A model generated the notes under the pieces. That model made no database searches. It saw only the letters and a program-made list of their open reading frames with translations, and was not told the DNA's origin. Of a stretch of DNA of 64,000 nt, positions 24,477-56,147 are shown one piece after another (the first letter of the stretch is position 1; the number at the start of each line of letters is the position of its first letter). This DNA is from an uncultured Alphaproteobacteria bacterium. GTDB lineage: Bacteria; Pseudomonadota; Alphaproteobacteria; Rs-D84. The translations under genes and the position numbers were made by a program. The stretch spans positions 275-64,274 of the forward strand of contig CAXHMP010000002.1 in assembly GCA_964017835.1 (NCBI GenBank), in the 5' to 3' direction.

Positions 24477-24518
24477 GTCATTTCACTCCTATGGTCGTGC
24501 AATGAATGCTTACAAACC

Positions 24519-24598
24519 GAGTCGAGTCAAGTGGAATAAACTAACATCTTGTGTTATTAGGAATTTATAGTATACTCAGTATCGAGTCTTACGGAGTC
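24519..24598 (+). promoter_or_regulatory. Cluster of four GAGTC (GANTC-class) motifs upstream of the helicase-nuclease gene
   Basis: GAGTC at 24519, 24524, 24584 and 24594, all in the same orientation, mostly as CGAGTC. The last is 5 nt before ATG 24603. A TATAGT -10-like hexamer lies at 24567-24572. Confidence 0.35.
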
Positions 24599-24602
24599 GA
24601 AT

Positions 24603-27600
24603 ATGGTTTCTTATATAAATAGTAAAGATGACAGAAAGAATACTGTTGTTTATTCGGGTTCTTCGGATAAAAAGTATTCAGAAATAAAATTTAACAAAAA
24701 GTTTCTTGAAGCTATTTATAAGAAATTGACAGGATTGGCAGGGCGTACGCCAATCCATCTTATGGCTGTCCCAGGCAGAATGAAAAATCGCCTTGATTTA
24801 TGTGATTTGTCCATTGCAAATGTTGAGCCTGATTTGGATTTGTTTTCCGGAAAGAATGCGCCTAAAACAGATGGGTATGCTAAGAGATTCTTGGAAACGT
24901 TATTAACAAAAGACAAATTTGATTTTAAATTTTCATGGGAAGATAAGAAAATTACTAGCATGGATTCGGAAGCAAAAGATGCCCTGACGATTGTTGGGAA
25001 ACGCTTAAATTCAATGCTTATTGATAACGAAGATGTATTCATTGATACCGGATTAAAAAACTTTGGTTTTGGATATCCTTTACTGGTACTACCAGATCCG
25101 AAGGACAAGGATAAGGCTGTAATAGCCCCGATTTTTATTTGGTCTTTGGATATTTGTCATTCAAATAGAAAAAATGAGTGGATTATATCGAAAACAGAAG
25201 ATAGTCCAATCAAGATGAACGAGATTTTGGTTTCGTACATTGAAAACACTATGAAATTAAAATTGCTTCGACTGGAAGCAGAAGATTTGGATGATGGAAT
25301 TTTGCAAGCAGATGAAATGCAAAAATATCTAAAAGATTTAGTAAAAAAGCTGAATATCCAACACGATGATTTAAATTTGAGACTTGAACCTGTTGGTACA
25401 AAAGAGCGTCTCGTAAAGTTGTGTTCTGAGAATGGTTTTATACAATGGTCAGGTGTTTTTGGCTTGTATAGGTCTCAAAAGGAAACAATTATAGAATCTG
25501 TTTTAGAGCTTGAAAATAATATAGACAATTTTAACGAACAGCAGTTGGAGTTAAAGCCATTTTCGACATCTTCAGAAGCTTCTTTTGAAACAGATCCTAG
25601 TCAGTCTGAAATAATACGAACGCTGAATGATAATGAATTTAAGATAATTCAAGGACCTCCCGGAACAGGAAAAAGTCAGGCGATTTCAGCGATAATTTCC
25701 AATGCTCTTGCGAACAAAGCAAAGACTTTGGTTGTGTGTGAAAAGAAAACAGCTTTGGAAGTTTTAAAACGTAATTTAGAAGAAAAGGGCTTAGATACAT
25801 TCTGTATAGTCGTTGATGACGTAAATAAGGATCGTAAAGCTGTTGTTAATAAGGCGAGAGGATTACAAGAATATAACCCGAATAAAGCTTTTAATGCGAC
25901 TGCATTTGAAAGGGATCAGCAGGAGTTTTTAACACTTAAAGCAAAAATTAATGAATGTTATAGTAATTCTAGTGAGAAGGTATTGGGGAATTATACCTGG
26001 ACAGATGTAATAGGGCTGTATTTAAAATATTCAAAATTGCCAACATTTGATAAGGTGAAGGAAGAATTAAAAGAGTTCGCTGAGTCTAAATTCGATTTTG
26101 ATATGCAAGAATTTGTAGAATTATGCAGTTTGGTAAAGGTTGGACACGAGCGTTACTCTATATGCAAGCACATAGACCCAAAAGCTTTTGAATTATTAGA
26201 TATTAATGCTCTAAAAGATGTTTCGATTTCATATAATATAGAAACACAGGATAATATTTCCTTGGTTCGTAAGCGCATTAACGATGTATCTGCATTTTTG
26301 AAAAACAATTATTGTGAGCTAGGTACGGCAACAATAAATACGACAGAAAAAGCATTAAATGATTATATAAAAGTTTTTGAGTCGTATGTGGAGCAAATTG
26401 AAAAAGCTAAAAACTTAGAAAATTTGAATGCTGATTATAAAACTAAAGTACATTTTTTCCAAACTGTTAACGATTTGGATATAGAGTTTTCTAAAACAGC
26501 AAATAGTCTTAATATCCCGTATGATAAATTGGATTTTGTTATTCCAGAAGTAGAAAAATCTATAAAAGATACGGAAAAATTATATAAAACAACAGAAGGA
26601 TTTGTAGCAGCTGCACAAAAACTTCATGGTATTGAAATAAATTTACAATCAGATAGTGCTTCTGTTAAAGAATTTGTTGGTATAATGAAAGAATTAAGTT
26701 GTTCAATAAATAACACAACAAAAAAACTTGCTGGCGATTACGTTCCTCTGAATTTTGATGATAAAATCGAAGAAAAATTGGAACATTTGTCCATCGTCAT
26801 GGCAAATACGCAATCAATAAAAGAAAATTTTAATTCTGGTAAGGAAGTCTTTGGCAAAGAATTTTCGGAATATAAATGTGGGCTATTTGCGCGCTTGTTG
26901 TCCAAAAAGGCTGCGGAAGCATTTCAATATTATAAAAATATAGAATTAAAATATAAAGAAATAGGAAAAACATTAAAAAGTTTTGCCAAATCATATAATA
27001 ATGCTATTGATTCCGAATGTGTCTTTAATGATGAAGTTGATACGCCTGGGGAAATGATTAAAATAGTGGAGAATGTTTCCGAAAAAGCAAGCACAATACA
27101 AAGCAGACTGTATGCTGAATTGGCCTCAATTCTGGTGGATATTGATAAGTGTGTAAGTGGTTTGCAAGAGGAAATCCGTGCAAGTAATGCCGAGACGAAT
27201 GAATTGATAAACAGTATTTGCGAAAAAATCTCAGTTTATCAGGAATCCTGTCGTGTTAATATTAAAACATTGAAAGTAATACTGCAATGTCAATCGCGTA
27301 TTGCGGATACGGATGAATTATTGCTGTCAAAGTTTCCAGGGCTTAAGAGCAAAGATCTAAAATATGATACCGTAGAACATTACATTGAACGGCTAAAATC
27401 TATACTTGAAAAAATAGATGTTCTTGAAAATCAACTTGAAGATTTAGAGCAGTATATGGCATGGATGGACGTCTTTAAGCCAAGTAAAAAGCTGTTTGAG
27501 GTTCTGATGTTGGAAGAAGATGATTATTTATGGGAAGATTTGTTTAAAGGGGCATATTACTACTATTTCTTGTTGAATTATGCGAACAAAAATAAGAAAC

Positions 27601-29216
27601 GCTTTTTGACGTCAACGAAAGAAAATTACTTGCAAATATTGCGTGACTTGTTCTTAAAGTTGCAAAATAATAATACAAAAAAGATATTTAATATCTGGCA
27701 TGATATAAGAGAAAATGCAATATATAATCTGGATTCTGCATTCGGTTTTAAGGCTTTGTTCGCTCTTAAACGTGGCAAATATGCAAAAAAGTTGTCTTTA
27801 CGACAGATCATAGAAAGAGATTTTGATTCATTTACGGATTTGTTTCCGGTTGTGATGGTAAACCCTATCGTTGCGAATGCATTATTGCCGTTACAGCAAG
27901 GTTTATTTAATTTAGTTATTTTTGATGAAGCAAGTCAGCTTAGAATTGAAGATGTTTATACGTCCATGATTCGCGGGCAATATAAAATCATTGCCGGAGA
28001 CAAACATCAGATGCCACCATCAAATTGGTTCGCTAAAAATGCAGATAATAGCAATTTAGATGACGAAGAAGATGATGATCTGACGTTAGCTTCCACGGAT
28101 GTTGAATCGCTGTTGGAGTATGCAGAGCATTTTAAAAATGCAAAACAATTTGCATCTCATCTGGATTTCCATTACCGCAGTAAACATCCAGCGTTGATTG
28201 AGTTTTCTAACTGTGCATTCTATGGTTCAAATTTATGTCCATTGCCAAATAGATTGGCAGAAACAACGCCGTTTGAATATCATTATATTGCAGGCGCGTA
28301 TGTTGATAGAATGAATAAAGACGAAGCTTTCAAAGTTGTGGAAATTATACGCAATTTGCCGAGAGACAGTAGAGGGAATTTGCCGTCTGTAGGAATTGCA
28401 ACGTTTAATGTACAGCAGAGAAACCTCATAAAGAATCTGATGCATGAGATTGAAATAGAAGATGAAAATTTTGCAAAAATCTGTGCAGAATTGAATCAAA
28501 ACAAAGATCCTTTGTTTGTGAAAAATTTAGAAAATATTCAAGGAGATGAGCGAGATATTATAATCATATCCACTACTTATGGACCTGGAGCAGATAATAA
28601 ATTCCGTGAGCAGTTTGTTATCAACCGACAAGAAGGTTATAGATTACTAAACGTTCTTATAACTCGTGCTAAGCAAAGATTAATTGTTTTGACTTCTATA
28701 CCAGAAAGTAAATTTTTGGATTATAAAACCAGATTAGACGAGGCGCAGGAAAATAATAAGACAGGAATATTTTACGCTTATTTAGCATACGTGAGAGCGC
28801 ATGCCAATCATGAATTTGATGTTGCCAAAGCTGTTTTGAAAGATATATCTAAATATTCATACGAAGAGCCGAGACGCGATTTAGATGAGGTCGCCTATGG
28901 ATTGACAGAATCGCCTTTTGAAGAGGAGGTTTATGAAGAATTGGTTTCATTATTACCTAAGGAAGCAATTCAGCCTCAATATAAGGTTGGTGGTTACCGG
29001 TTAGACTTTTTGTTGACTGTCGGAGACAAAAGAATTGCGCTTGAATGTGATGGCAAGGCTTATCATCAGTCAGAGGAAGCGTTTGTTGAGGATATGCAAC
29101 GACAGAAAATTCTTGAAGGATATGGATATATATTTTATCGGATATGGTCGACAAGCTGGTTTACCAACAAAGAAAAAGAGGTATTAAAGCTGAAACGGTT
29201 CTTAGAGCAATTATAG
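24603..29216 (+). CDS. Giant SF1 (Upf1/DNA2-like) helicase fused to C-terminal Vsr/DUF559-type PD-(D/E)xK nuclease (1537 aa)
   Basis: Walker A GPPGTGKS (aa 351-358, nt 25653-25676). Motif II FDEASQ (aa 1107-1112, DEASQ at nt 27924-27938). GDKHQMPP. GDERDIIIISTTYG. LLNVLITRAKQRLIVL. C-terminus GYRLDFLLTVGDKRIALECDGKAYHQ..YIFYRIWSTSW. Confidence 0.85.
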   Translation: MVSYINSKDDRKNTVVYSGSSDKKYSEIKFNKKFLEAIYKKLTGLAGRTPIHLMAVPGRMKNRLDLCDLSIANVEPDLDLFSGKNAPKTDGYAKRFLETLLTKDKFDFKFSWEDKKITSMDSEAKDALTIVGKRLNSMLIDNEDVFIDTGLKNFGFGYPLLVLPDPKDKDKAVIAPIFIWSLDICHSNRKNEWIISKTEDSPIKMNEILVSYIENTMKLKLLRLEAEDLDDGILQADEMQKYLKDLVKKLNIQHDDLNLRLEPVGTKERLVKLCSENGFIQWSGVFGLYRSQKETIIESVLELENNIDNFNEQQLELKPFSTSSEASFETDPSQSEIIRTLNDNEFKIIQGPPGTGKSQAISAIISNALANKAKTLVVCEKKTALEVLKRNLEEKGLDTFCIVVDDVNKDRKAVVNKARGLQEYNPNKAFNATAFERDQQEFLTLKAKINECYSNSSEKVLGNYTWTDVIGLYLKYSKLPTFDKVKEELKEFAESKFDFDMQEFVELCSLVKVGHERYSICKHIDPKAFELLDINALKDVSISYNIETQDNISLVRKRINDVSAFLKNNYCELGTATINTTEKALNDYIKVFESYVEQIEKAKNLENLNADYKTKVHFFQTVNDLDIEFSKTANSLNIPYDKLDFVIPEVEKSIKDTEKLYKTTEGFVAAAQKLHGIEINLQSDSASVKEFVGIMKELSCSINNTTKKLAGDYVPLNFDDKIEEKLEHLSIVMANTQSIKENFNSGKEVFGKEFSEYKCGLFARLLSKKAAEAFQYYKNIELKYKEIGKTLKSFAKSYNNAIDSECVFNDEVDTPGEMIKIVENVSEKASTIQSRLYAELASILVDIDKCVSGLQEEIRASNAETNELINSICEKISVYQESCRVNIKTLKVILQCQSRIADTDELLLSKFPGLKSKDLKYDTVEHYIERLKSILEKIDVLENQLEDLEQYMAWMDVFKPSKKLFEVLMLEEDDYLWEDLFKGAYYYYFLLNYANKNKKRFLTSTKENYLQILRDLFLKLQNNNTKKIFNIWHDIRENAIYNLDSAFGFKALFALKRGKYAKKLSLRQIIERDFDSFTDLFPVVMVNPIVANALLPLQQGLFNLVIFDEASQLRIEDVYTSMIRGQYKIIAGDKHQMPPSNWFAKNADNSNLDDEEDDDLTLASTDVESLLEYAEHFKNAKQFASHLDFHYRSKHPALIEFSNCAFYGSNLCPLPNRLAETTPFEYHYIAGAYVDRMNKDEAFKVVEIIRNLPRDSRGNLPSVGIATFNVQQRNLIKNLMHEIEIEDENFAKICAELNQNKDPLFVKNLENIQGDERDIIIISTTYGPGADNKFREQFVINRQEGYRLLNVLITRAKQRLIVLTSIPESKFLDYKTRLDEAQENNKTGIFYAYLAYVRAHANHEFDVAKAVLKDISKYSYEEPRRDLDEVAYGLTESPFEEEVYEELVSLLPKEAIQPQYKVGGYRLDFLLTVGDKRIALECDGKAYHQSEEAFVEDMQRQKILEGYGYIFYRIWSTSWFTNKEKEVLKLKRFLEQL

Positions 29217-29271
29217 TATCTATTGCTACGGATAATACCATCAAGTCCTTTATGGCTTGTTCAAATCGATA

Positions 29272-29300
29272 TTGCAAGATGGTTTGTTTTTTAGTAGAAT
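29272..29300 (+). promoter_or_regulatory. Putative promoter TTGCAA-17 nt-TAGAAT immediately upstream of the endonuclease ATG
   Basis: TTGCAA at 29272-29277 and TAGAAT at 29295-29300. ATG 29307 lies 6 nt after the -10 and there is no Shine-Dalgarno, so the mRNA may be leaderless. Confidence 0.35.
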
Positions 29301-29306
29301 ATTCAT

Positions 29307-30692
29307 ATGTTTACCAAGGAATATGATAAAACGAACGTTGAATCCATACTGCGGCATGCCAAACAGCTGCAGGGGTATACGTTGCGTGAATATTTAGATG
29401 GGGTTCAGCTGCCTACAACGCGTGAAACGCGTGCAGGTAATAGAGGACAGCTTGGTAATGAAATAGAAAAATATTTTTTTGGCTATGAACCAAATAGTAA
29501 TTCGGAACCAGATTTCCCAGATGTAGGACTTGAATTAAAGGTTACCCCACTTAAACGTTTGGCAAAAGGCGCTTTGACGACCAAGGAACGTTTGGTTTTA
29601 TCGCAAATAAATTTTCATGATATTGTATCCGAAACATGGGATGATAATAGTTTATTAAAAAAGTTGCGTTTTCTTTTGTTGATGTTTTATGTCGCAGAAA
29701 AAGATGTCGCCTCGTTAGATTTGTTGTTTGAGTTGGTAAGTACATGGTCACCATCCGATAAGGATATGCAAATCATCCGTCAAGATTGGGAAACAATTGT
29801 TGCCAAAGTCCGGGCCGGAAATGCGCACGAGTTATCAGAAGGTGACACAATGTATTTGGGCGCATGCCCAAAGGCGGCAGATTCTACGGTTCGACGTTCG
29901 CAACCAAATAGTAATATTCCGGCAAAGCCACGTGCATTTGCGTTAAAAAGTTCTTATATGCGTGCCATATGGAATGAATTGAATGGTTCGCGTACAGAAG
30001 CTTTGTCTGACTCAGCAAATGTGTATGATTTTGTTATAAATAAGTTTAAACCATTATATGGAAAAAGCATTGCTGATATTGCTCGCATTCTTGATATTGA
30101 TGCTGCCCCGATGCGTCGTTCTAAAGATTTTATAAGTCGTTTTATGAAACAAGTTCAGGTTAAACTATTTTCCAAAAGACTGTCAGAATTTTCGGAGTTT
30201 GAAAAATCTGGTATTCAGGTGAAAAATATTTTGTTGTTGCCGAATGGAATTCCAAAGGAAAGTATGTCTTTTCCTTATATAAATTATAAAGAAATTGTTT
30301 TGCAGGAAGATTGGGAAACGTCCGACATAAAATCGTTGTTTGAAAATGAAAAGCATCTGTGGCTGGTTTTTAAGGCTACAAAGCCGTATTCGTGTCAACG
30401 TGATTTGAATCTGAATGAAATAATTTTTGAAAAGGCTATGTTTTGGAATATGCCTGCTGCTGACCTGGATGGTGCGATGCAAGATTTATGGCGTGATACT
30501 GTTGCAAAAATTCGTGCGGGGGATTATGGGCATTTTATAAAAATGTCTGAAAATCCAGTAGCTCACATTAGGCCAAAGGCTCAAAACTCAAACGATTTAA
30601 TGGAAACGCCCCAAGGAACGCGCGAAAAGAAAAAGTGTTTCTTTCTTAATCGCGCATACGTAGGTAATCAGATAAGAAAAATGGTAGCTTAG
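29307..30692 (+). CDS. Type II restriction endonuclease, Sau3AI/MutH-like (461 aa)
   Basis: MutH/Sau3AI catalytic region EPDFPDVGLELKVTPLKRL...KERLVLSQINF (D..ExK). Size and two-domain length are similar to R.Sau3AI. Paired with a C5 methyltransferase. Confidence 0.75.
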   Translation: MFTKEYDKTNVESILRHAKQLQGYTLREYLDGVQLPTTRETRAGNRGQLGNEIEKYFFGYEPNSNSEPDFPDVGLELKVTPLKRLAKGALTTKERLVLSQINFHDIVSETWDDNSLLKKLRFLLLMFYVAEKDVASLDLLFELVSTWSPSDKDMQIIRQDWETIVAKVRAGNAHELSEGDTMYLGACPKAADSTVRRSQPNSNIPAKPRAFALKSSYMRAIWNELNGSRTEALSDSANVYDFVINKFKPLYGKSIADIARILDIDAAPMRRSKDFISRFMKQVQVKLFSKRLSEFSEFEKSGIQVKNILLLPNGIPKESMSFPYINYKEIVLQEDWETSDIKSLFENEKHLWLVFKATKPYSCQRDLNLNEIIFEKAMFWNMPAADLDGAMQDLWRDTVAKIRAGDYGHFIKMSENPVAHIRPKAQNSNDLMETPQGTREKKKCFFLNRAYVGNQIRKMVA

Positions 30693-31900
30693 TCTTCTTG
30701 ATTTACTATTTCCGTTATTCCTGTGGCAATTACTTGTATTAAATCAACAACCAATGCATTGCCCATACAGAAATATCGGAACTTTTCAGGCATTCCGGTG
30801 TTTGTCCAATTGTCTGGGAAGCCATCAATGCGTTCGCATTCAACAGGGGTGAGTTTCCTTAAATTTCCGGTCGCTTTGTCTTTTACTATATGGGTTGTTC
30901 GGCTGTTTGAACCTTCACTAGTTAGGATTGTTCGGGCTGCCCGGTTGGTCAAATCTGGAAAGGGGATTGGACCTTCTGTATAAAAATATTTGTATCCTGT
31001 TGATGACGTCCGTTCTTCTTTTTTTGCACCTTTCATATATACAAATTTTTTATACAATTCTGGGGATAGAAAAAATCTGTCTTCTGCCTCTATTTCCATA
31101 ATATCATCAAGTGTTTTTCTTGCTGACGGTAGGGTGTTGATTGGTTTAGTTTTTATGGTTTCTATTTGGCTGTCAATCATTATGCCTGTATTTTCAAAGA
31201 TGAATGCAAAGTTGGTAGATATTGATAATAAGTCTGTTGGAAGTGCTGTGGTCTTCATAAGCAGTTCATTAAAAGGCATAATCGGTAAAACGCGAGCAAA
31301 TAGAGTGTCCGTTTGCAGGTTGTGTGTGTGTCTTAACTTTTGAGCATATTTTGTGCTTTTATGAGCGGCAAATATAAATGTTCTGCGTCTGCGTTGTTGG
31401 AATCCGTACTCTTCGGCATTTACCACGCGCCATTCTACATAATACCCCATATTATTCAGGCAGGCTAAAATTATTGCAAAATCACGTCCACGCTGTTTGG
31501 CGGGGGATTTTATTAATCTGTCAACATTTTCCAACAATACAAATGGTGGACGTTTAGCTCTTAAAATACGGTCTATATCCCACCATAAAACCCCTTTTTT
31601 TCCTTCTATCCCCTTGGACTGTGTGCCGGCAACAGAGTAATCTTGGCACGGGAATCCGCCAACCAGGATTGTGTGGTCGACAATAGATTCAGCAGGAACA
31701 GAATGGATGTCTGTATTGGAAAACTTGTTAATCCCGCCTTGTGATTCAAAATGTGTTTTATAACACGTGTATGCATGCTGATTCTTGGCGCCCGGTTCCC
31801 ATTGGTTTGCCCATACTGTTTTCCACGTCTTGTCCGCGGCTTCAAACCCTAGTCTGAATCCCCCAACGCCAGCAAATAATTCTACAATTGTCTTTTTCAT
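30689..31900 (-). CDS. DNA (cytosine-5)-methyltransferase (403 aa from ATG 31900)
   Basis: Motif I ELFAGVGGFRLGFE, motif IV GGFPCQDYSVAG, motif VI ENV (LLENVDRL), motif VIII QRRRRTFIF, and a C-terminal GNALVV. Convergent with the endonuclease gene, with 4-nt overlap of the 3' ends. Confidence 0.92.
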   Translation of the reverse strand: MKKTIVELFAGVGGFRLGFEAADKTWKTVWANQWEPGAKNQHAYTCYKTHFESQGGINKFSNTDIHSVPAESIVDHTILVGGFPCQDYSVAGTQSKGIEGKKGVLWWDIDRILRAKRPPFVLLENVDRLIKSPAKQRGRDFAIILACLNNMGYYVEWRVVNAEEYGFQQRRRRTFIFAAHKSTKYAQKLRHTHNLQTDTLFARVLPIMPFNELLMKTTALPTDLLSISTNFAFIFENTGIMIDSQIETIKTKPINTLPSARKTLDDIMEIEAEDRFFLSPELYKKFVYMKGAKKEERTSSTGYKYFYTEGPIPFPDLTNRAARTILTSEGSNSRTTHIVKDKATGNLRKLTPVECERIDGFPDNWTNTGMPEKFRYFCMGNALVVDLIQVIATGITEIVNQED

Positions 31901-32229
31901 ATGTCTTCCAAACGCCTGTAATATACAATAAAAAAGACAAAGGATCAAGTAAAAAATTACACTGTTATTTAGCGAAATAAGGATTTAATCAGTTGATTTA
32001 AGTGATTCTTTATGCAAAACTGGCAATGAATCCAATGGGAATTGGGTTCGGGGCTGTGGTGGCCCACAAGTGCGGTGATATGTCGTTATAATACCCCGAC
32101 TTTGGTCGGGGAGCAGTTTGTTATGCAATAGGGTTTTCCCAAAGGAAATGGAACATTCACTTATTGACACCAACTCCCCGACCGTCAAATTCCTGTTTGG
32201 CGGTCAAATCTATTTAAAAGGGGAATTTT

Positions 32230-32760
32230 GTGTGCGTTGATCCGTATATTTTGCCGGTGAAGTGGTTTGGAAACGAGAAAAATCCACGTCTGGTAATATT
32301 GCTATGTAATCCGGGCGGCGATCCCAAATGGCCAAAACGATTGCCTGAATACACAATGCAAAGAGATGATGTTTATAAAGATTCCGGAATGTCTTTGACT
32401 GAGTGTCAAAAATACAATGATTGGTGGGATGATTTCTTTGGTGTATTTGAGAAGCATAAACTAAACCCTGCAGATGTCTTGCTGTTAGAGTTTTATCCAT
32501 GCCACACAGTATCGTCGCGCGATTTCTCTCATAACCCAAATAAATGGAATGATTATGCGCGTGCGGCATTAGATTCAAATATTGCGATTTTACGCCGACA
32601 CATAGCGCATGGGCAGCCCGTATTTGGGTATTATTGGGGTGACTGGGTGCGTGTGGTTCCGGAATTAAAGGATTATGCACATTTCTGCAAAAGCGAAGGC
32701 GCTTGGAAAAAGCAAAAGATTAAAGAATTGGACAAGTTTTTAAGCAAGGAGGTAAGTTGA
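32230..32760 (+). CDS. Hypothetical protein (176 aa), possibly UDG-superfamily-like fold (weak)
   Basis: GTG start with an AAAGGGGA Shine-Dalgarno. RLVILLCNPGGDP resembles UDG/MUG motif A (GxNPG). LLEFYPCHTVSS vaguely resembles motif B. The stop overlaps the ARH start (ATGA). Confidence 0.6.
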   Translation: MCVDPYILPVKWFGNEKNPRLVILLCNPGGDPKWPKRLPEYTMQRDDVYKDSGMSLTECQKYNDWWDDFFGVFEKHKLNPADVLLLEFYPCHTVSSRDFSHNPNKWNDYARAALDSNIAILRRHIAHGQPVFGYYWGDWVRVVPELKDYAHFCKSEGAWKKQKIKELDKFLSKEVS

Positions 32761-33557
32761 TGCTCTGGGGTGCGATTGTCGGTGATATTGTTGGTTCGGT
32801 TTATGAGTTTTCAAACATAAAAACAAAGAGTTTTCCGTTCTTTCATGTGAATGGTTATATCACAGATGATTCTTGCATGACGATTGCTGTGGCGCATGCA
32901 CTGATGAAATGGAAACGTGACGGTGGTGAACTGCAAAAACATACCGTTGAGTCTATGCGTAGGATCGGCTTTCAATATCCCAATATGGGTTATGGATTCA
33001 GGTTCGCAAAATGGATGTTTAATAAGGAATCAGAACCATATAACAGTTGGGGCAATGGTGCGGCAATGCGCGTGTCAGCGGTCGGATGGGTTGGGCGCAG
33101 TATGGCAGAGGTTAAGCATTTGTCGTATATGGTGACATCGGTTAGTCATGATCATATAGAGGGCATAAAAGGTGCCGAAGCAACCGCGATTGCCGTATTT
33201 TTGGCACGTATGGGCAAGGATAAAAAAGAAATCGAAAAATACATAACTGATAATTACTACGCCCCGTGCCCATCGATTGCGGAATTACAAGAAAATTATA
33301 GTTGGGATAGCTCGTGTCAGGGCACAGTCCCCCAGGCATTAGAGTGCTTTTTTGAATCAACAAGTTTTGAAGATGCAATACGCAATGCGATTTCAATCGG
33401 TGGTGACAGTGATACTATCGGCGCAATTACCGGGGCGATTGCCGGGGCATATTATGGCGTGCCGGATGATATAAAATCCACCGCACGCGAATACGTGCCG
33501 GAGAAATTGCTTGAAATTGTGGATGAATTTGAACACTGGCTGCGGCCCCACCTATAA
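32757..33557 (+). CDS. ADP-ribosylglycohydrolase family protein (266 aa)
   Basis: WGAIVGDIVGSVYEF, ITDDSCMTIAVA, GNGAAMRVSAVGW and GGDSDTIGAITGAIAGAYYG. These are the four hallmark ARH/DraG blocks, including the metal-binding Asp clusters. Confidence 0.9.
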   Translation: MMLWGAIVGDIVGSVYEFSNIKTKSFPFFHVNGYITDDSCMTIAVAHALMKWKRDGGELQKHTVESMRRIGFQYPNMGYGFRFAKWMFNKESEPYNSWGNGAAMRVSAVGWVGRSMAEVKHLSYMVTSVSHDHIEGIKGAEATAIAVFLARMGKDKKEIEKYITDNYYAPCPSIAELQENYSWDSSCQGTVPQALECFFESTSFEDAIRNAISIGGDSDTIGAITGAIAGAYYGVPDDIKSTAREYVPEKLLEIVDEFEHWLRPHL

Positions 33558-33631
33558 TATGGAGCAAATTATGGTAATAGATAAAATTCGAGAGGCATTT
33601 AATAATTTAAAATCTCAAAACCGTTTTTTTT

Positions 33632-34471
33632 GTGTCAGAGGCGGATTTTCAGCACAGCCTGGCGATGGAGTTAGAACGCGCATTCCAAGGCGAACCTGAC
33701 ACGTCAATCATATTGGAATTTCCAATCGACCAGGGTGGTCGTAAAATCTATGTCGATATCATGATTGTGCATGGCGGTCGGTTATACCCGATTGAACTTA
33801 AATACAAAACCAAACATATTCCGGCAGATAATATATATGGTCAAACACAGATATCTGTGCGTAATATCTTAAAAAATCAAGGTGCCCAGGATTTAGGCGG
33901 ATATGAAATCTGGAAAGATGTCAATCGTATTGAACGTCTGATTAAAAATGACCAGGTTCATTCGGGTGCATGTATTGTGATATCAAATGATAAATATTAC
34001 TGGGATGGTTTTTGCAGCCCGCGCGCCCAAGGCTTTGCATTCCGCACAAAGTCCGGGGTATATTCGCCACGTAAATGTGATTGGAATATTATAAATCAAA
34101 CGGATGTAAAGAAATGGATTGCGGAACACCCAGGATTCAGAATAGAAAACGAATATAATCTAGAATGGACCGACTTTCATAATTGTGACCATCAGAACAG
34201 GTGCTTTAAGTCATTGTTTATACCCATTCAGCCGAAGAAGCCGCGCCCCAAATCGCGCGCGACAACAAAGCAGGCATTGGCGGATATAGAATACCTGCGT
34301 GAACGTACCAAAGGGTATATATCAGAAGAATATTTGGAAAAATTGGTATCACTGGGGATAAATCCACTAAATAGCGATGGGACCTTAAAATCAAAAAATA
34401 TACTGAGTGTAATGATTTGGCGGTATACAGATAAAAGTAGATGGACAAAATCCACCAAAGCAAAAAAATAA
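33632..34471 (+). CDS. PD-(D/E)xK restriction-endonuclease-like protein (279 aa as called; may start at 33559 after a frameshift in a T8 tract)
   Basis: SEADFQHSLAMELE..EFPIDQGGRKIYVDIMIVHGGRLYPIELKYK (E..D..ExK core). Basic C-terminal tail. ATG 33559 lies 1 nt after the ARH stop and is in frame only if T8 (33624-33631) were T7. Confidence 0.6.
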   Translation: MSEADFQHSLAMELERAFQGEPDTSIILEFPIDQGGRKIYVDIMIVHGGRLYPIELKYKTKHIPADNIYGQTQISVRNILKNQGAQDLGGYEIWKDVNRIERLIKNDQVHSGACIVISNDKYYWDGFCSPRAQGFAFRTKSGVYSPRKCDWNIINQTDVKKWIAEHPGFRIENEYNLEWTDFHNCDHQNRCFKSLFIPIQPKKPRPKSRATTKQALADIEYLRERTKGYISEEYLEKLVSLGINPLNSDGTLKSKNILSVMIWRYTDKSRWTKSTKAKK

Positions 34472-34560
34472 TAAAAGGCCGTAAGTATACGGCCTTTTGG
34501 GTTGCCAGACTGACCGGGTTTGAATTGTGTGGCGGTTGGTGGTAATTTATAGCCTATCAT
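34471..34560 (-). pseudogene. Truncated DUF5681-like gene fragment (N-terminal ~30 codons only)
   Basis: MIGYKLPPTATQFKPGQSGNPKGR, after which the reading frame runs antisense into the 3' end of the 33632-34471 gene. The ATG overlaps the stop of the methylase fragment (ATGA). Confidence 0.45.
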
Positions 34561-35827
34561 TTGATTTCTCCTATCTTTTCGGACTTTGTGCCAGTCAATG
34601 TTTCAAAGCGTTTGATTGTGACGTCACAGTATTTTTCTTCTATCTCTATCCCGCGGCATACGCGCCCGGTCAGTTCACACGCAATCAGTGTAGAGCCCGA
34701 GCCCAAGAAACAATCCAGAACAATGTCGCCCCGGCGCGTCACGTCCAGTATCGCATCGCGCAGCAATTGCGACCGGCTTTACGGTCGGGTGCAGTTTCAG
34801 GTCGTCTTTACCCGCGCCGAACGCATTTGCGCCGGCATAGTCCCAAACGTTCGTCCGATATCGCCCATGTGCGCCGAGTTCTATGTTATTGATGTGGGGT
34901 GCGGTGCCAGATTTATAGATAAAGCATAGCTCGTGCTTGCTGCGATACAGGCTGCCCATGCCGCCGTTGGTTTTATTCCAAACACAGATGTTTTTGAAAT
35001 CGTCATAGACGGCCGCGCCGGCGGTGGTCATTTCGCCAACGTGCTTCCAGTCCATAAACAGGTAATGCAGGGCGCCCTTCACGGAATATTCCTTGGCATG
35101 GCGCATAAAGGTCGTCAGGAACTCTGTGAACTCGGCTGGTGTCATCTCGCCTGACGCCATGGCAAACTCATCGTGCTTGTTTTTGCCCATGGATCCGATG
35201 CTCCGGACCTTTACATTATACGGCGCATCGGTCAGAACCATCTGGGCGCGCTCGTCACCCATAAGGGCGGCATAAGACTCGGCCATCAGCGCATCGCCAC
35301 AGACGATTGTGTGTCGTCCAAGTTTCCAAATGTCGCCGCGGTGGCACCGCCGGTCTTCGTCTAGCAGCGCCGGAATGGCGTCAGCTTTCGGATCGCTTGT
35401 CCCGTCGCCGTCCAGAATCAGGTCTATTTCAGCGGTTTCAAACCCGGTAATTTCCAGATTGAAATCCAGGTCAAGGTTGCTTAACTCGCTGAACTCTAAG
35501 TTCAACAGCTCGATACTCCATTTGCCAAGCTCGGTCAGTTTGTTATCGGCAATGCGATATACGCGCTTTTGGGTCTCCGTCAGATGCGACAGGATTATCG
35601 CCGGAACGTCACGCATACCGGCATCCTGGGCTGCCGTCACGCGCCCATGCCCGGCAATGATTTCCAGATTCTCGTCCAGTAAAACTGGATTGATAAATCC
35701 GAATTCGCGAATGGATTCGCGTATCTTCGCCATCTGGGCATGGTTGTGCAACTTCGGGTTGTTTTTATACGCCCGTATCCGGGCGATTTTCTATGTTTTG
35801 GATTGTTAAGTCAGTCATTAGACTCTC
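34557..35827 (-). pseudogene. ParB-like nuclease domain / N6(N4) DNA methyltransferase, disrupted by at least two frameshifts
   Basis: Three frames carry consecutive pieces: MTDLTIQNIE.. (ATG 35827, GGAGAG Shine-Dalgarno); KIARIRAYKNNPKLHNHAQMAKIRESIREFGF..TDAPYN..HPTVKPVA (to ~34770); then LLRDAILDVTRRGDIVLDCFLGSGST.. (to 34557). The shifts are near 35790 and 34769. Confidence 0.8.
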
Positions 35828-35857
35828 CTTATAGTTTTTGTTATCTATCCCTAAAAA

Positions 35858-35875
35858 TTTTTAGGGGTTCCTATA
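35858..35875. repeat. 18-bp perfect palindrome CCCTAAAAATTTTTAGGG
   Basis: Read directly from the sequence. It lies about 30 nt upstream of the ParB-methylase pseudogene start, in the divergent intergenic region. Confidence 0.9.
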
Positions 35876-36085
35876 TATAAGGTCGAGTGAAAGTTTACTC
35901 AGGCGCGAACCCAAAAAACGATACACTTCCCCTCTATATAGGCGATTTGAAAGTTAATGTGTTAATGTAGGGACAAATCTTATGTTTATACTTGAAAAAT
36001 ACGGCAATTTGATTATATATCAGAACGATATGAAAATTATGATGGAGTTATAGACCGTACATATAACAATTTGTGACATATAAAA

Positions 36086-37567
36086 ATGAGAACGCTGAAT
36101 TTGATTTCTTTTGCTGAAAGTTTGGCATCTGATGTTTCAGATGCAGCCTGTAGGTATTTGGAAGTTTTGCCGAAAGATACAGAAAAAGAAATTATACAAA
36201 TTCTGGCTAAAAGATTTATCGAAAAAGGACTTCCAGTCGGATCGTTTAATGGTTTTTATTTTGGCTATAATATACCTCAAATTGGAAAAGAATTCGATTT
36301 TTTGAGAATGGGTTCAAACTACATTGTAAATTTAGAAATAAAGAGTGAGTCGACCGAAGATAAAGTAAAAAAACAATTGGTTCAAAATAAATTTTATTTA
36401 TCTCTTCTTAAGAAACCATTGAAACTTTATACATACATATTGAATGTGGATAAATTTTATAGTTTAAATGAAGATAACGGCCTTTCGGAGATTGATTTTG
36501 GACAAGTCGTTACAAGTATTTTGGAACAAACAGATTTATATACAGATAATTTAGATACTTTATTTGGTGCTTTTAATTATCTTGTTTCGCCATTTAATGC
36601 CACGGATGAATTTATAAATGGATATTATTTCTTAACTCCGCAACAAGACAATATTATACGCGATCTCGATAGCATTTTTTGCAATTCTACTGGAAATATT
36701 GTGGCCATAGAAGGTGCGGCAGGAACAGGCAAATCGTTGCTATTATATGATTACGCCAAAAGAATAATGGAGAGTAATGATCGGGCTTTAATAGTTCATG
36801 TCGCGCAATTAAACCCCGGACATGATAAATTAATGAGAAATTATGGATTTTCTATTTCTAACATAAAAACGTTTATGGAAAATATAAATAATTCAGTTCT
36901 TAATAATTTTGATGTCATACTTATAGATGAGGCACAAAGGCTATTCACAAGCCAACTAGAACAAATTATAGAATATGTAAAAACGCATAACATAAACTGT
37001 ATTTTGTGTTATGATGAAAAACAAAAACTGTCAGATGGTGAATTTAGAAGTGAATCCGTTAGTCTAATTAGACAAAACTCCCGTCCGAATTATACATTAG
37101 GAAAGAAAATAAGAACGAACCATAAACTTGCATCTTTTATAAATAAGATGTTTGACTTAACGAGTGAATTTGATGGGAATTGCGCAGAAGTTTCTCTTAC
37201 TTATTTTAAAAACTTTAGAAGTGCATATCAATATTTAGAGACAAATGTAGATTATAGTTTTGTCCGGTATACACCATCAAGGTATTATCCAAATCCGCAA
37301 ATAAACCTATTAAGTGGTTTAAAATCGTGCGTTGGTGCCGCTCATGAAGTTATTGGGCAAGAATTTGATAATGTATCTGTAATGATAGGAAGAACGTTTT
37401 ATTATTCCGATAATGGAAAACTCTGCTCAAATACTGTTGAAAGGAATCCTTACAATTTCTTAGGTATGTTATATCAAGCTGTTACCCGTGCTAAGAAGAA
37501 ATTAGAAATCATTGTGGTTAACAATCCATCTGTGTATAAAGAGCTGGTTGCAATCATTAGAGGCTAA
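36086..37567 (+). CDS. P-loop NTPase/helicase-like protein (DUF2075-like) with N-terminal NERD/PD-(D/E)xK-like domain (493 aa)
   Basis: N-terminus GKEFDFLRMGSNYIVNLEIKSE (D..ExK). Walker A GAAGTGKS (aa 210-217, nt 36713-36736). Walker B VILIDEAQRL. C-terminus GQEFDNVSVMIG and AVTRAKKKLEIIV (UvrD_C-like). Confidence 0.75.
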   Translation: MRTLNLISFAESLASDVSDAACRYLEVLPKDTEKEIIQILAKRFIEKGLPVGSFNGFYFGYNIPQIGKEFDFLRMGSNYIVNLEIKSESTEDKVKKQLVQNKFYLSLLKKPLKLYTYILNVDKFYSLNEDNGLSEIDFGQVVTSILEQTDLYTDNLDTLFGAFNYLVSPFNATDEFINGYYFLTPQQDNIIRDLDSIFCNSTGNIVAIEGAAGTGKSLLLYDYAKRIMESNDRALIVHVAQLNPGHDKLMRNYGFSISNIKTFMENINNSVLNNFDVILIDEAQRLFTSQLEQIIEYVKTHNINCILCYDEKQKLSDGEFRSESVSLIRQNSRPNYTLGKKIRTNHKLASFINKMFDLTSEFDGNCAEVSLTYFKNFRSAYQYLETNVDYSFVRYTPSRYYPNPQINLLSGLKSCVGAAHEVIGQEFDNVSVMIGRTFYYSDNGKLCSNTVERNPYNFLGMLYQAVTRAKKKLEIIVVNNPSVYKELVAIIRG

Positions 37568-37582
37568 AAGCAATATCAGTAG

Positions 37583-38008
37583 CTATAAATGCACGATGTC
37601 GATGTCGGGGAATTGTTCGGCGATGTATTCGGCCGCCAGGCGGCGGTGGCATTGTAGAGCGGATTTTTCGGTACATAACAGGCAAATTCGGTCAAGGTCA
37701 GCCGGGGTGAGGCCCACGGTCGGGCGGCGTGCGGCCAATAATTCACGGTACATTCGTTCATAATCAGGCCAGGTTATGCGACCATCTTTATATCCGGCCA
37801 GGATTTCCACCGTTGGGGCGAATTCTGGGTGATATTCATATCGCGGTCCCAATGCCACCGCCAGGTTTTCGCCGCTATAAAATGGCACGTATGTGCAGGC
37901 GCGCCATTGGCGTATGTCCCAGACTCTGCGTACACGCACTGCATTTAACACGTCCATAAACGCGTCTGGGGTCTTGCTGCTAAAGCCAATTGTAAATATT
38001 TTCGTCAT
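37583..38008 (-). CDS. DUF488 family protein (141 aa from ATG 38008)
   Basis: MTKIFTIGFSSKTPDAFMDVLNAVRVRRVWDIRQ is a typical DUF488 N-terminus. The C-terminus has CTEKSALQCHRRLAAEY. The ORF track extends to 38053. Confidence 0.7.
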   Translation of the reverse strand: MTKIFTIGFSSKTPDAFMDVLNAVRVRRVWDIRQWRACTYVPFYSGENLAVALGPRYEYHPEFAPTVEILAGYKDGRITWPDYERMYRELLAARRPTVGLTPADLDRICLLCTEKSALQCHRRLAAEYIAEQFPDIDIVHL

Positions 38009-38167
38009 ATTATTGTAATTATGACGGGAAGTGCGCGCATAATCAACCATCAATCGCGATTAGTTCTTTTACCCGGATTTAAGCATTTTTTTTGTTTTTG
38101 TATCGTCCACGGTAATGAACGGCGATATTGAACGGGCGATATAAATGAATAAAATAATAAAAAAATG

Positions 38168-38196
38168 TTGACATGAAAAACATTGGGATATATGAT
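38168..38196 (+). promoter_or_regulatory. Putative promoter TTGACA-17 nt-TATGAT
   Basis: TTGACA at 38168-38173 and TATGAT at 38191-38196. An AAGGAAG Shine-Dalgarno precedes ATG 38224. Confidence 0.5.
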
Positions 38197-38223
38197 AGGG
38201 AGTAGTTTAAAAGGAAGATAAAA

Positions 38224-38607
38224 ATGGCTTTTATTGAATTTAGAGAAGTACGGGCAAAAAATAATGTACGGGCGACGATTTCTGGTCGCGGTGAATTATC
38301 ATTTACCGGCGGGGTGATGCGTAAATTCATGATTGATTTACGCCGGGATCGATTTGCCAAACTTTATTTTGACCCAGCAGACAAAAAAATTGGCCTGAAA
38401 TTAATCATGATGGATGACGGATACGCGGTGAAAATTCGCCCCCAAGGTCAGGGATTTAAAATTGTAAACAAGGCGTTTTTCGAAACGTATCACATTATGC
38501 CCAAAGAAACCTGCAATTATGATGTCACGATGGAAGATGACATGTTGGTGGTGGATTTAAAAACGGCGCGGCCCCGGGTTGCGGCGCTGGATACGGACGA
38601 CGAATAA
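38224..38607 (+). CDS. Hypothetical protein (127 aa)
   Basis: ORF with a good promoter and Shine-Dalgarno. Family not recognised. Confidence 0.55.
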   Translation: MAFIEFREVRAKNNVRATISGRGELSFTGGVMRKFMIDLRRDRFAKLYFDPADKKIGLKLIMMDDGYAVKIRPQGQGFKIVNKAFFETYHIMPKETCNYDVTMEDDMLVVDLKTARPRVAALDTDDE

Positions 38608-39109
38608 AAAAAACAGCCCAATCTGCTGGAACAGGCTGGGCTGGGGGAACGATTCTAATACACATTAGAACAATTCTAACCATTCTAAGTGTAACAAAAG
38701 TTCCCTAAATTGTCAAATTTTGATGTTTAATATAAAGCGAAAGGGGAATTTTATGCATAAATTTCAAATAATTGGTGGATTTTCATCTTGTTCTGGGGGA
38801 TGTGTGATGGGGATTGTTGATACATCGCGGCCAATCTGTACCATTAGACAGATGAATACAAGGGCGTATTTAAAGGGGATGTTGTTCTGCCTGATTATCA
38901 AGCGCGGCGTCGATTTTTTTTGGAATTTGCTGCATGGGATAGTGACGGGATTAATGGATTATGGAACGCAATGCTGGACGTTGTGTGGATAGTTAACGGT
39001 TGGTCAGCATGGGTATGATTATATTTATTTCCCATAGAGAAGGGCGCAGTGCGTACATTTCTGGCGCAATGTGGGGCGTTTGTGTTGGGGGGATAAATAG
39101 TATCTGAGA

Positions 39110-39690
39110 ATTTTATTAACGGTCCAAGACGAAGAAAGGTATTAAACCGAGTTTATAGAATACTATAAATTAATGGGAGGCGAACATTTTTATATATGCA
39201 TCCAATAATGGGACGGATGAAACGCCGAAATACAGAAAAAAAACACTAAATCGGGAATTATTACATACCAAGGTTATCCAGGGGAAAAGGATTATTCAGG
39301 GCAAAAGGTTCAAACAGATATTTATAATTATGCGGGGCATCATTATGGTATGAAAACGTGGTGGATGGCGATTATCGACGCGGACGCGTTTATTGTGCCG
39401 GTGGTCCATAAAACGATTCCGGAATTTTTAACCCGGTACGAGAAATATTCCCAGGTCTGTATTCATTGGGTTTTATATGGCAGCGCCGGCGGATGGATGC
39501 ACGGGCGCCAATCGATAAAATTCGCATAAATCGTTATGTAACCCAGTCATGGGATGAATTTATGGCCCAGATAAAGCACAGTCGTGCATCGGGTCGGGAT
39601 GATGATTTGGTTGTGTTTTTTTCGCGCCCACGATAAAAATGACGTAACCGGCAATATCGTGAAAAAATATACTTGTATCATCAAAGCGGG
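39110..39690 (+). pseudogene. Decayed paralogue of the downstream glycosyltransferase gene
   Basis: Fragments in shifting frames parallel the 40039-40965 product: LMGGEHFYIYASNNGTDET vs ILVGVEKFYLYDNDSTDDT; WWMAIIDADAFIVPVVHKTIPEFL vs RWMAIVDVDEFIVPVMHNTIPEFL; IDKIRINRYVTQSWDEF vs NKIRINHYAVKSYDEF. Stops and deletions separate the fragments. Confidence 0.7.
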
Positions 39691-39852
39691 TCGCAAGTGC
39701 CGGGCGGTAAACGCATCATTATTGGAAATAATGCCAATTCATGTTTTTGTTTCCGCGGGCGATTTTCAGATTTCATGGTTGATTTTAGGCCGTTTATCTT
39801 TTAATATGTTTTCTGTATTCATGCGATGCATGAGTATGTTAGTAGTAGGGCG

Positions 39853-39980
39853 TCGATAACCCGGATAACTAGCACACATTGTGTTTTGACTAACAATCCC
39901 GACACTTGTCGGGAAGTTGTGGCTATACAACAGGGTCATTGACCCGAAAACCACAAGGTCAAAGTTATCTGACTTATCGA
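39853..39980. repeat. Inverted repeat pair TCGATAA-N4-GATAACT (39853-39870 / 39963-39980) enclosing several small hairpins
   Basis: TCGATAACCCGGATAACT versus the reverse complement of AGTTATCTGACTTATCGA. Internal hairpins: ACAC-ATT-GTGT, TCCCGAC-ACTT-GTCGGGA, GTTGT-GGCTAT-ACAAC, GGTCA-TT-GACC. Confidence 0.6.
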
Positions 39981-40038
39981 ACTTCCCGACTCCTATTCCA
40001 CAAAATAGGGGTTTGTTTTTATCAAAGGGGATTATGAT

Positions 40039-56134: not shown

Positions 56135-56147
56135 AATTTGGGGGTAA

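Follow-up and report, generated by a model that had tools for sequence, protein, structure and literature searches.

We describe a compact, operon-like unit of three co-directional genes in a 64,000-nt stretch of contig CAXHMP010000002.1 (assembly GCA_964017835.1), hereafter the window, from an uncultured alphaproteobacterium. Gene 1 encodes a protein whose predicted fold resembles that of the uracil-DNA glycosylases (UDGs), gene 2 an ADP-ribosylglycohydrolase (ARH), and gene 3 a PD-(D/E)xK-fold nuclease-like protein. At a probability that we put at roughly 0.38, the trio is an anti-phage conflict system of modular build, "ARG-centric" in type (ARG, ADP-ribosylglycohydrolase), that is directed at adducts and occupies a leader-controlled cargo slot, with a promoter, a structured leader RNA, gene 1, the ARH gene, gene 3, and a terminator making up one transcription unit. 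The leader is strongly supported as a structured RNA family new to Rfam and is the most solid new object of this analysis. Together with the undescribed family to which gene 1 belongs, this uncatalogued RNA is what is new here; predicted ARG-centric systems and UDG-fold defense glycosylases were already known. The bacterium itself belongs to the Candidatus Enterousia type of gut alphaproteobacteria.

Three tightly spaced genes form a single operon-like unit

An earlier note on this DNA, based on its letters and reading frames, had described three co-directional genes, and the corresponding open reading frames (ORFs) were found on the plus strand at the coordinates given there (Table 1). They are taken to be genes and not chance ORFs because each of the three has many diverged homologs. 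The TGA stop codon of gene 1 (32758-32760) and the ATG of gene 2 (32760-32762) share one A (TGATG), which amounts to a 1-nt overlap. The overlap of the two codons had been noticed before and stands, but the "ATGA" reported at 32757-32760 does not, as the letters at this position read TTGA. A Shine-Dalgarno sequence, AAGGAGG, is located ahead of gene 2 at 32746-32752, and the junction of genes 1 and 2 reads AAGGAGG-N7-TTGATG. Gene 2 ends in TAA at 33555-33557 and, after a gap of 1 nt, is followed by the ATG at 33559, again as read previously.

The leader RNA defines the 5' end of the operon. Directly upstream of it lies a promoter-like segment, whose TTGATT hexamer and spacing to the -10-like hexamer are kept across 16 aligned upstream regions; a generic sigma-70 scan did not flag this segment. 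At the other end, a GC-rich hairpin begins two bases past the gene 3 stop codon, before the convergent remnant of a ParB-methyltransferase gene, and is likely a bidirectional terminator. The covariation of the leader RNA at the 5' end, the terminator at the 3' end, and the 1-nt overlap and 1-nt gap between the genes together suggest a single operon-like unit.

Table 1 Features of the trio operon, further leader matches, and neighboring genes in the window
Feature	Position	Strand	Basis or remark
Promoter-like segment, TTGATT / 17 nt / AAAACT	31993-32021	+	Inferred; directly 5' of the leader RNA
Structured 5' leader RNA	32027-32205	+	Covariation, covariance model
Gene 1, 176 aa, GTG start, UDG-superfamily-like predicted fold	32230-32760	+	ORF, AlphaFold (AF2), Foldseek
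Gene 2, ADP-ribosylglycohydrolase (ARH/DraG family), 265 aa from ATG	32760-33557	+	PF03747, phrog_6572
Gene 3, PD-(D/E)xK-fold nuclease-like, 303 aa when repaired	33559-34471	+	Frame repair, AF2, Foldseek
GC-rich hairpin AAAAGGCCGTAAGTATACGGCCTTTT	34473-34498	.	Flagged terminator-like, 11 pairs
Second, diverged leader copy	39839-40045	+	68.6 bits; directly 5' of a GT92/GT2 glycosyltransferase gene (40039-40965) and an NAD-dependent epimerase gene, at the island edge
Third leader match	55988-56160	+	Weak, 30 bits; no obvious downstream gene
1537-aa helicase-type protein, PDC-S37 (E 1e-130) / Hhe-like	24603-29216		PADLOC
Frameshifted ParB-N6/N4 methyltransferase remnant	34675-35751; C-terminal part in other frame, 34557-34766		Convergent to gene 3
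AbiO/Nhi-like protein	36086-37567		E 1e-143
DUF488 protein matching PDC-M45C	37583-38053

A conserved structured RNA stands ahead of gene 1 and of other cargo

The approximately 240 nt upstream of gene 1, whose conserved structure had escaped the earlier note, are much better conserved than gene 1 itself, with blocks that are 88 to 97% identical where the gene 1 proteins share 43 to 55% identity. RNAalifold analysis of 14 sequences yielded ten helices comprising 65 base pairs, 23 of which show compensatory changes, and the long-range helices 3 and 4 covary at almost every pair. In this alignment, 97.4% of the cells are paired, compared to 30 to 51% in slid controls, and none of 500 shuffles matched the observed values on any of five measures. 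The copy in the window has approximately eight helices, with one internal hairpin pair missing. Its last helix (32180-32205) is terminator-like and is separated from the start of gene 1 by 25 nt.

A covariance model of the leader matched the window at 32027-32238 with 179 bits (E 9e-49) and located the motif ahead of gene 1 there and at 19 other loci. When the region 31800-32230 was compared to Rfam 15, no match was obtained at an E value of ≤1; the only match, a chance-level hit to a small RNA, lies inside gene 3 (E 0.79). The leader scan revealed no tRNA or tmRNA. Copies of the leader include those at loci L005, L010, L018, L023, L025, L026, L028 to L031, L036 to L038, and L041.

The genes behind the leader differ from copy to copy. 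In L018, it heads an operon of type III mod and res genes, ARH, and gene 3; in L013, a gene 3 homolog; in L038, an operon encoding an outer membrane protein and a lipoprotein; and in two IMG/VR contigs, other cargo beside a packaging module. The window itself holds two further matches (Table 1). Because the cargo behind other copies is unrelated, the leader is not tied to the trio and appears to serve generally in the expression of whatever occupies a variable cargo slot. It may act as a riboswitch or attenuator or through processive antitermination. In this respect, it resembles the leader RNAs of long or foreign operons, such as the EAR and LoaP-type processive antitermination leaders: it is a structured RNA of approximately 180 to 250 nt between promoter and first gene, it carries a terminator-like 3' hairpin, and it stands ahead of horizontally acquired defense and cell-surface operons. 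Unlike those RNAs, the window leader matches no Rfam family. Judged by eye, GGUCGGGGAG could also pair with CUCCCCGRCC, at the expense of P2, P7, and the last hairpin; covariation cannot back this pairing because the columns concerned are nearly invariant.

Gene 1 founds an undescribed family with a UDG-like predicted fold

The earlier note could not place gene 1 in a family, and database searches bear this out: gene 1 has no match in Pfam (E ≤ 1), NCBIfam, PHROGs, or PADLOC, and its profile returned chance matches only when compared to the PDB sequences. At 90% identity, the family falls into 25 clusters. When 1.84 billion representatives were searched exhaustively with its profile, it numbered 30 representatives at 50% identity; this search added few distant relatives, none of which carries a Pfam domain. 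All genomic members originate from metagenome-assembled genomes (MAGs) of uncultured gut Alphaproteobacteria, mostly labeled Candidatus Enterousia, and no relative was found among 2.9 million IMG/VR viral contigs. Gene 1 is the founding member of a tiny undescribed family.

The AF2 model of the gene 1 protein has a predicted local distance difference test score (pLDDT) of 85 and a predicted template modeling score (pTM) of 0.84. When queried against the PDB with Foldseek, its best match is the family 4 UDG 1l9g (E 0.015; probability, 0.97; template modeling [TM] score, 0.50), followed by SMUG1, UdgX, 4zby, and TDG. Against BFVD (E 0.02), the matches are a phage COG1573 UDG, crAss-like UDGs, and the UDG-like domains of phage polymerases. 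As modeled, the fold therefore appears closest, weakly, to the uracil-DNA glycosylase fold. We call gene 1 UDG-like and do not file it as a member of the UDGs, given the weakness of the structural matches and the nonsignificant outcome of a profile-profile comparison with DUF1643 (see below).

Several residues stand out in the family. N27, E87, Y89, P90, and H92 are invariant in 23 sequences; across 35 family sequences, N27 is again invariant, with P28 and G29 conserved; and the conserved aromatic residues are Y62, W65, W66, and W139. The segments RLVILLCNPGGDP and LLEFYPCHTVSS, which the earlier note had likened by eye to UDG motifs A and B, are present and fall within the most conserved columns. 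The suggested kinship is upheld in that UDGs lead the Foldseek matches in both the PDB and BFVD, and for motif A also in position, as LVILLCNPGG comes directly after the first strand of the model (residues 21 to 25). It is not upheld by a profile link, nor by the location of motif B. The segment LLEFYPCHT, in the family YP(C/Y)H(T/S), comes after the second core strand (residues 83 to 87) and not after the last; therefore, it would match the position of the base-reading Asn/Glu and not that of the HPS motif, and in the model this segment may well be the base-reading site. The family thus has a conserved Asn (in NPG) after strand 1 and a conserved Glu after strand 2, which is where UDGs and the defense glycosylase Brig1 hold their catalytic and base-reading residues. 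These conserved residues fit an enzyme, in which the NPG loop with N27 may have a catalytic role.

DUF1643 (PF07799), which we take to be a family with a UDG-like fold, resembles gene 1 in its length of approximately 170 aa and in the order of its motifs: a hydrophobic strand followed by NP(S/G), a strand followed by (N/E)xYP, and a strand followed by W/GG. However, gene 1 has no Pfam match, and hhalign gave a probability of 0.06% (E 0.78). Homology was tried with hhalign of gene 1 against a single DUF1643 sequence and then against an alignment of 35 DUF1643 sequences; as expected, the segments LLLEFYP and MLNVYP fall in register, but the register is nonsignificant, and for this reason homology is not claimed.

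One distant relative of gene 1, P0170 (L142 1742-4916; profile E 2e-5), adjoins genes for a COOH-NH2 ligase, a class-II glutamine amidotransferase, and Mu Gam. This gene set is presumably typical of phage DNA base-hypermodification clusters, and if so, the neighborhood points to nucleobase chemistry for gene 1.

Gene 2 encodes an ARH with intact catalytic motifs

Gene 2 had been called an unambiguous member of the ARH/DraG family, and this assignment is firm. The protein matches Pfam PF03747 (ADP_ribosyl_GH) at an E value of 7.5e-35 and 121.4 bits (cutoff, 26.2), over profile positions 3 to 281 of 287, and phrog_6572 at 1.8e-50. Its nearest solved structures are those of ARH3, in alignments that take in GDxVGSxYE, TDD, GNGAAMR, and GGDxDT, and the metal-site motifs quoted before are all present (GDIVGSVYE, TDDS, GNGAAMR, and GGDSDT). 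Judging from this sequence, gene 2 encodes an ADP-ribosylglycohydrolase with intact catalytic motifs. As the scores remain below the NCBIfam equivalog cutoffs (TIGR02662, 53 versus 337 bits; NF041672, 39.7 versus 490 bits), we regard it as a member of the ARH family and not as an ortholog of DraG or Tri1. PADLOC gave nothing for gene 2 beyond a 14-bit local match.

No partner that would attach ADP-ribose was seen in the trio, as the earlier note had also remarked. Pfam and PADLOC revealed no ADP-ribosyltransferase (ART), DarT (DUF4433), macro, or NADAR domain in genes 1 to 3; the Foldseek matches of genes 1 and 3 contain no ART-like fold; and no ART family occurs among the Pfam-marked gene calls in the loci of relatives.

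Gene 3 encodes a nuclease-like protein and is frameshifted in the window

The 1-nt frame problem suspected in gene 3 is located in a run of eight T residues (T8) at 33624-33631, which interrupts the gene 24 codons past the ATG at 33559. With one T deleted, the gene encodes 303 aa, and the protein shares 88% identity along its entire length with the intact 299-aa homolog P0026. In the DNA alignment, relatives read CGT TTC TTC GTG at this site; as judged from this comparison, gene 3 carries one extra T (+1) in a homopolymer that was created by two synonymous changes. Either the frameshift is genuine, or it arose in the assembly. The ORF as originally listed (33632-34471; GTG start, 279 aa) is without the first helix.

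Gene 3 has no Pfam or PADLOC match. Its family comprises more than 342 clusters that share a core of approximately 220 aa, and the E..D..ExK core noticed before is indeed a family feature, as E49, D62, E75, and K77 are invariant over 61 members. In the AF2 model (pLDDT, 87.6), these residues are located on the strands at 44 to 54, 57 to 67, and 70 to 79, giving D...(D/E)xK on consecutive strands. The top Foldseek matches in the PDB are Cas4, Card1, MGME1, Hjc, Can2, and 3ijm, all of which are PD-(D/E)xK proteins (probability up to 0.99; E values weak, 0.02 to 0.4). Although these E values are weak, the picture is consistent, and gene 3 is predicted to encode a PD-(D/E)xK-fold nuclease-like protein with intact catalytic residues. 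A C-terminal helical extension of approximately 80 aa (34215-34471, containing LGINPLNSDGTLKSKNILSVMIWRY) is limited to the closest relatives. The same segment stands at the N terminus in P0027 and P0028, and because of this change of place it looks like a small permuted mobile domain.

Gene 1 recurs with one of two partners, and gene 3 is an accessory

Linkage was counted over the 30 species-level loci that carry gene 1. In 12 of these, gene 1 is followed by ARH (two of the 12 are disrupted, and one is cut by a contig end); in 15, it is followed by an SseB-like protein (weak SseB-domain match, E 2e-6 to 1.7e-3); and in the remaining 3, by neither. Gene 3 is adjacent to gene 1 in 8 of the 30, either downstream or immediately upstream. 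Gene 1 and its partner stay together also where the leader is missing and where the surroundings differ. ARH and gene 3 also occur together without gene 1, in L018 and L019. Furthermore, in an unrelated 4.2-Mb genome (L050, 7001-9314), a gene 3 homolog of approximately 30% identity lies two genes from ARH, in a unit downstream of SWI2/SNF2 and PLD-helicase genes. The 217-aa protein in the middle of this unit was considered as a distant relative of gene 1 and rejected, as it looks like a vWA protein by eye. In total, the link between the restriction endonuclease (REase)-fold gene 3 and ARH recurs in L010, L018, L023, L031, L050, and L053.

The homologs are thus syntenic elsewhere, which answers the neighborhood question raised in the earlier note. 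Its picture of one three-gene trio is borne out in part: the genes form an operon-like unit in a defense island, but the trio is not fixed, since gene 3 is optional and the gene order varies. In our reading, gene 1 recurs as a unit with ARH or the SseB-like protein, to which gene 3 adds an accessory nuclease. When identities are compared in the same loci, gene 1 (53 to 57%) and gene 3 (43 to 48%) diverge faster than ARH (72 to 81%). Alleles have also been swapped independently: in L010, the identity is 89% for gene 1 and 85% for ARH but only 43% for gene 3, and L018 has ARH at 89% and gene 3 at 88% identity without gene 1.

Additional genes occur in and around these units. In many relatives, proteins of 120 to 144 aa with a lipoprotein signal (lipobox L-x-G-C) are encoded between gene 1 and ARH, as in L005 (8526-8888), L010 (8537-8971), and L023 (8526-8939); they may be morons of the superinfection-exclusion type. 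The ARH pseudogenes of L001 and L020, described below, are followed by a gene for a 257-aa protein, which is fused to the SseB-like domain in L025 and L028. A distant gene 3 homolog lies two genes from a DUF1643 protein in L051 (5316-7651). In L049 (5340-9019), a unit of disrupted gene 1 and ARH is duplicated in tandem on a contig binned as Bacteroides fragilis, which may be a binning or assembly artifact.

The trio resembles known and predicted systems in part

Apart from the local ARH match, the trio proteins match no system model in PADLOC-DB v2, and the trio is thus unassigned, as the earlier note had thought possible. The wider claim of an undescribed system holds as far as PADLOC goes, but ARG-centric systems were predicted in 2022 and UDG-fold defense glycosylases are known. 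In ARG-centric systems, the ARG is coupled to neither an ART nor a sirtuin (Iyer, Burroughs, Anantharaman, and Aravind 2022, Viruses 14:1977, section 3.8; PMC9503650). They link to REase effectors, helicases, and SseB, vWA, or TY-Chap chaperones; approximately 42% include a Nudix or WYL-HTH regulator and approximately 55% a coupled phosphatase; and these computational predictions are proposed to undo phage-inflicted ADP-ribosylation (PMC9503650). The window operon is similar in that its ARH stands without ART or sirtuin and is linked to the REase-fold gene 3. Its relatives further share SseB and vWA-looking partners, a modular composition, fast-evolving components, and conflict settings. In contrast, the window operon itself contains no vWA, SseB, or TY-Chap protein, and an SseB-like protein replaces ARH in 15 relatives. 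A further difference is the addition of the UDG-fold-like gene 1; the words "uracil" and "glycosylase" never occur in the article (PMC9503650).

With respect to gene 1, the closest comparison is with Brig1, a UDG-fold defense glycosylase that has a Glu after the strand where UDGs have an Asn and that works as a single gene although it lies within a three-gene operon (PMC11078745). Brig2 and other UDG-like proteins also act in defense. Like Brig1 and Brig2, gene 1 encodes a small UDG-fold-like protein in an AT-rich defense island on a mobile element, undetectable by sequence, with family 4 UDGs (4ZBY and 1L9G) among its best structural matches and a Glu after the second core strand. The two cases differ, in a comparison made by description and not by sequence, in that Brig1 and Brig2 each work singly, gene 1 being accompanied at almost every locus by ARH or an SseB-like protein. 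The Foldseek support reported for Brig1 and Brig2 is also stronger than that for gene 1.

The pairing of an ADP-ribose-removing enzyme with a small enzyme in a defense context recalls DarTG and DarHTG, in the latter of which DarG3 is an ARH-type antitoxin (PMC13069673), as well as DraT-DraG and Tre1-Tri1. However, the trio has no DarT/DUF4433, ART fold, macro, or NADAR domain, and ARH is dispensable for intact gene 1. Because it lacks these domains, the trio is neither DarTG nor a classical ART/ARH pair.

A tentative conflict module and the explanations that compete with it

The trio is a candidate defense operon because its neighbors in the window are the helicase PDC-S37/Hhe, a Sau3AI-type restriction-modification (R-M) system, AbiO/Nhi, and PDC-M45C, and because its relatives also lie near defense genes. 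In the preferred reading as an adduct-directed, ARG-centric module, gene 1 would encode an N-glycosidase acting on invading or damaged DNA; it would flip out a base that bears an ADP-ribosyl- or sugar-type adduct and then excise the base or cleave the adduct. The earlier note had suggested something similar, with removal of sugar- or ADP-ribose-type base modifications coupled to cleavage. ARH would strip ADP-ribose-type adducts from the same or related targets, with the gene 3 nuclease as the effector that cuts DNA so marked. Expression of the cargo would be set by the leader RNA ahead of it, be it as a riboswitch or attenuator or through processive antitermination. Domain identities, conserved residues, operon boundaries, the defense setting, and the modular yet recurring linkage are what the analysis shows; which substrate is attacked, in what order the proteins act, and whether they cooperate is inferred.

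A number of observations weigh against this module. The Foldseek matches of gene 1 are weak (E 0.015 to 0.02; TM score, approximately 0.5), with none at an E value of ≤0.001, and Pfam, PDB-sequence, and hhalign searches provide no sequence or profile tie to UDG or DUF1643. After the last strand of the gene 1 model, no HPS-type motif B is present, only K/S being conserved past residues 152 to 154. Gene 3 is frameshifted in this copy, and the operon in the window has none of the Nudix or WYL regulators, rhodanese or other phosphatases, or ARPP of the ARG-centric systems. Its composition and order are plastic among relatives (gene 1-ARH, gene 1-lipoprotein-ARH, gene 1-x-gene 3-ARH, gene 3-gene 1, and ARH-gene 3). 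In the lineage of L001 and L020, gene 1 is intact but the ARH gene next to it (8729-9508 and 8531-9298, respectively) is a pseudogene that carries three to five stop codons in frame. Type III R-M, envelope-protein, and glycosyltransferase operons stand behind the same leader. In the wider gene 3 family, no partner is conserved: of the 92 loci with gene 3 homologs (61 with gene calls on both flanks), 2 were found to contain ARH, and the commonest neighbors are serine recombinases, gene 3 being mostly solitary on mobile elements. As the wider family has no constant partner, gene 3 is not an obligate part of an ARH system. Finally, the only fusion of gene 3 to gene 1, a 402-aa ORF in one MAG (L048, 7308-8516), arose when 1 nt was lost next to a run of six A residues (A6), and the two genes overlap by 11 nt in the unfused reference (L042, 7307-8516). 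As Rosetta-stone evidence, this fusion was judged weak, given that the loss of 1 nt relative to L042 may be a real fusion or a homopolymer error.

Many of these points would follow equally if the three genes were independent cassettes, namely, a Brig-like glycosylase, a stand-alone ARH, and a stand-alone nuclease, each a single-gene moron or defense gene, that were stacked in a leader-driven slot. The tight spacing would then reflect compact cargo arrays and not a shared pathway. Close relatives differ in gene order and content, with lipoprotein genes between gene 1 and ARH; the alleles in L010 are swapped; the leader precedes quite different cargo; gene 3 is mostly solitary; ARH decays beside an intact gene 1; and Brig1 acts as a single gene despite its three-gene operon. 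This explanation is the main rival, and we give it somewhat less weight than the module, because 27 of the 30 species-level loci keep one of the two kinds of partner downstream of gene 1, even where the leader is missing, all three pairwise combinations recur, and gene 3 is again found near ARH in an unrelated genome (L050). A nearly obligatory partner of mutually exclusive type, with an overlapping start, would also suit a toxin-antitoxin or abortive infection system. Here, gene 1 would be a toxic N-glycosidase acting on DNA bases or NAD+, restrained enzymatically by ARH or through binding by the SseB-like protein, and gene 3 would be an extra effector. ARH-type antitoxins exist (DraG, Tri1, and DarG3 of DarHTG; PMC13069673), and the conserved Glu and Trp/Tyr cluster of gene 1 is compatible with an NAD+-type or base-type glycosidase. 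However, the ARH pseudogenes weaken this explanation, since gene 1 is intact where ARH has several stop codons. Moreover, an excised base could not be restored by an ARH, gene 1 occurs without such a partner in L015 to L017, L022, and L046, and its model is unlike an ART, with no TIR in the fold lists and deoxyribosyltransferases only near the bottom. We therefore hold a toxin-antitoxin function to be quite improbable.

A role in repair or counter-defense of the element itself, in which ARH and the glycosylase-like protein would protect the DNA and proteins of the element or host from ADP-ribosylating toxins (DarT-like, or phage Alt/Mod-like), is the least probable of the explanations considered. 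It would agree with the position of the trio beside the packaging module of a phage-satellite-like element, with the existence of phage ARHs (phrog_6572), and with the proposal of Iyer et al. that ARG systems undo ADP-ribosylation and do not attack DNA (PMC9503650). Against it stand the lack of gene 1 relatives among the 2.9 million IMG/VR viral contigs, the classical defense genes all around, and the attached nuclease, which suggests an effector arm.

The conflict module that we prefer would matter in several ways. ADP-ribosylation is a major weapon on both sides of the phage-host conflict, and host systems built on an ARH without a transferase have so far been predictions only. With its ARH, glycosylase-like protein, and nuclease, the operon is compact and clonable and offers a direct way to test the ARG-centric predictions, and the trio would widen the recently opened class of UDG-fold defense enzymes. 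The leader RNA stands ahead of defense and cell-surface operons in an uncultured gut lineage, and its ligand or protein partner would show how the cargo is switched on. In the most far-reaching version, which we regard as improbable, gene 1 would be the first member of a UDG-fold N-glycosidase family for ADP-ribosylated or ribosyl/sugar-hypermodified bases. With ARH and the nuclease, it would read and destroy or repair ADP-ribosyl-DNA, and its expression would depend on a new class of structured leader, be it riboswitch or antiterminator, by which satellite-like elements of one family control their cargo slot. If true, this would be a new branch of ADP-ribose-based immunity.

The trio lies in the cargo region of a satellite-like element

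The trio had been placed in an AT-rich island between a Sau3AI-like R-M system and decayed phage-type genes, and both the base composition and the gene calls agree with this. The island has a GC content of 0.32 to 0.43, compared to approximately 0.50 in the flanks, and spans from a large serine recombinase and DUF2924 gene pair at its left end (22266-24297) to approximately 40 kb. Besides the genes listed in Table 1, it also holds a Sau3AI-like REase gene and a C5-methyltransferase gene, flanking the trio.

In relatives, the position of the trio adjoins an intact module of ParB-methyltransferase, DUF5681, and Terminase_6C genes on the opposite strand. Their elements carry only this ParB-methyltransferase/DUF5681/TerL module and no structural genes. 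The DUF5681 and terminase genes of these relatives are missing from the element in the window, and 22266-40000 looks like one decayed integrative element that has lost its terminase. Because of the ParB-methyltransferase/terminase module and the defense neighbors in relatives, we regard the trio as part of the cargo region of a phage-satellite-like integrative element. Those neighbors include reverse transcriptases, Fic/VbhA, HamA (Hachiman-like) with a helicase, Gabija-like genes, Mrr, YjiT/YjiV-like genes, and type III R-M systems.

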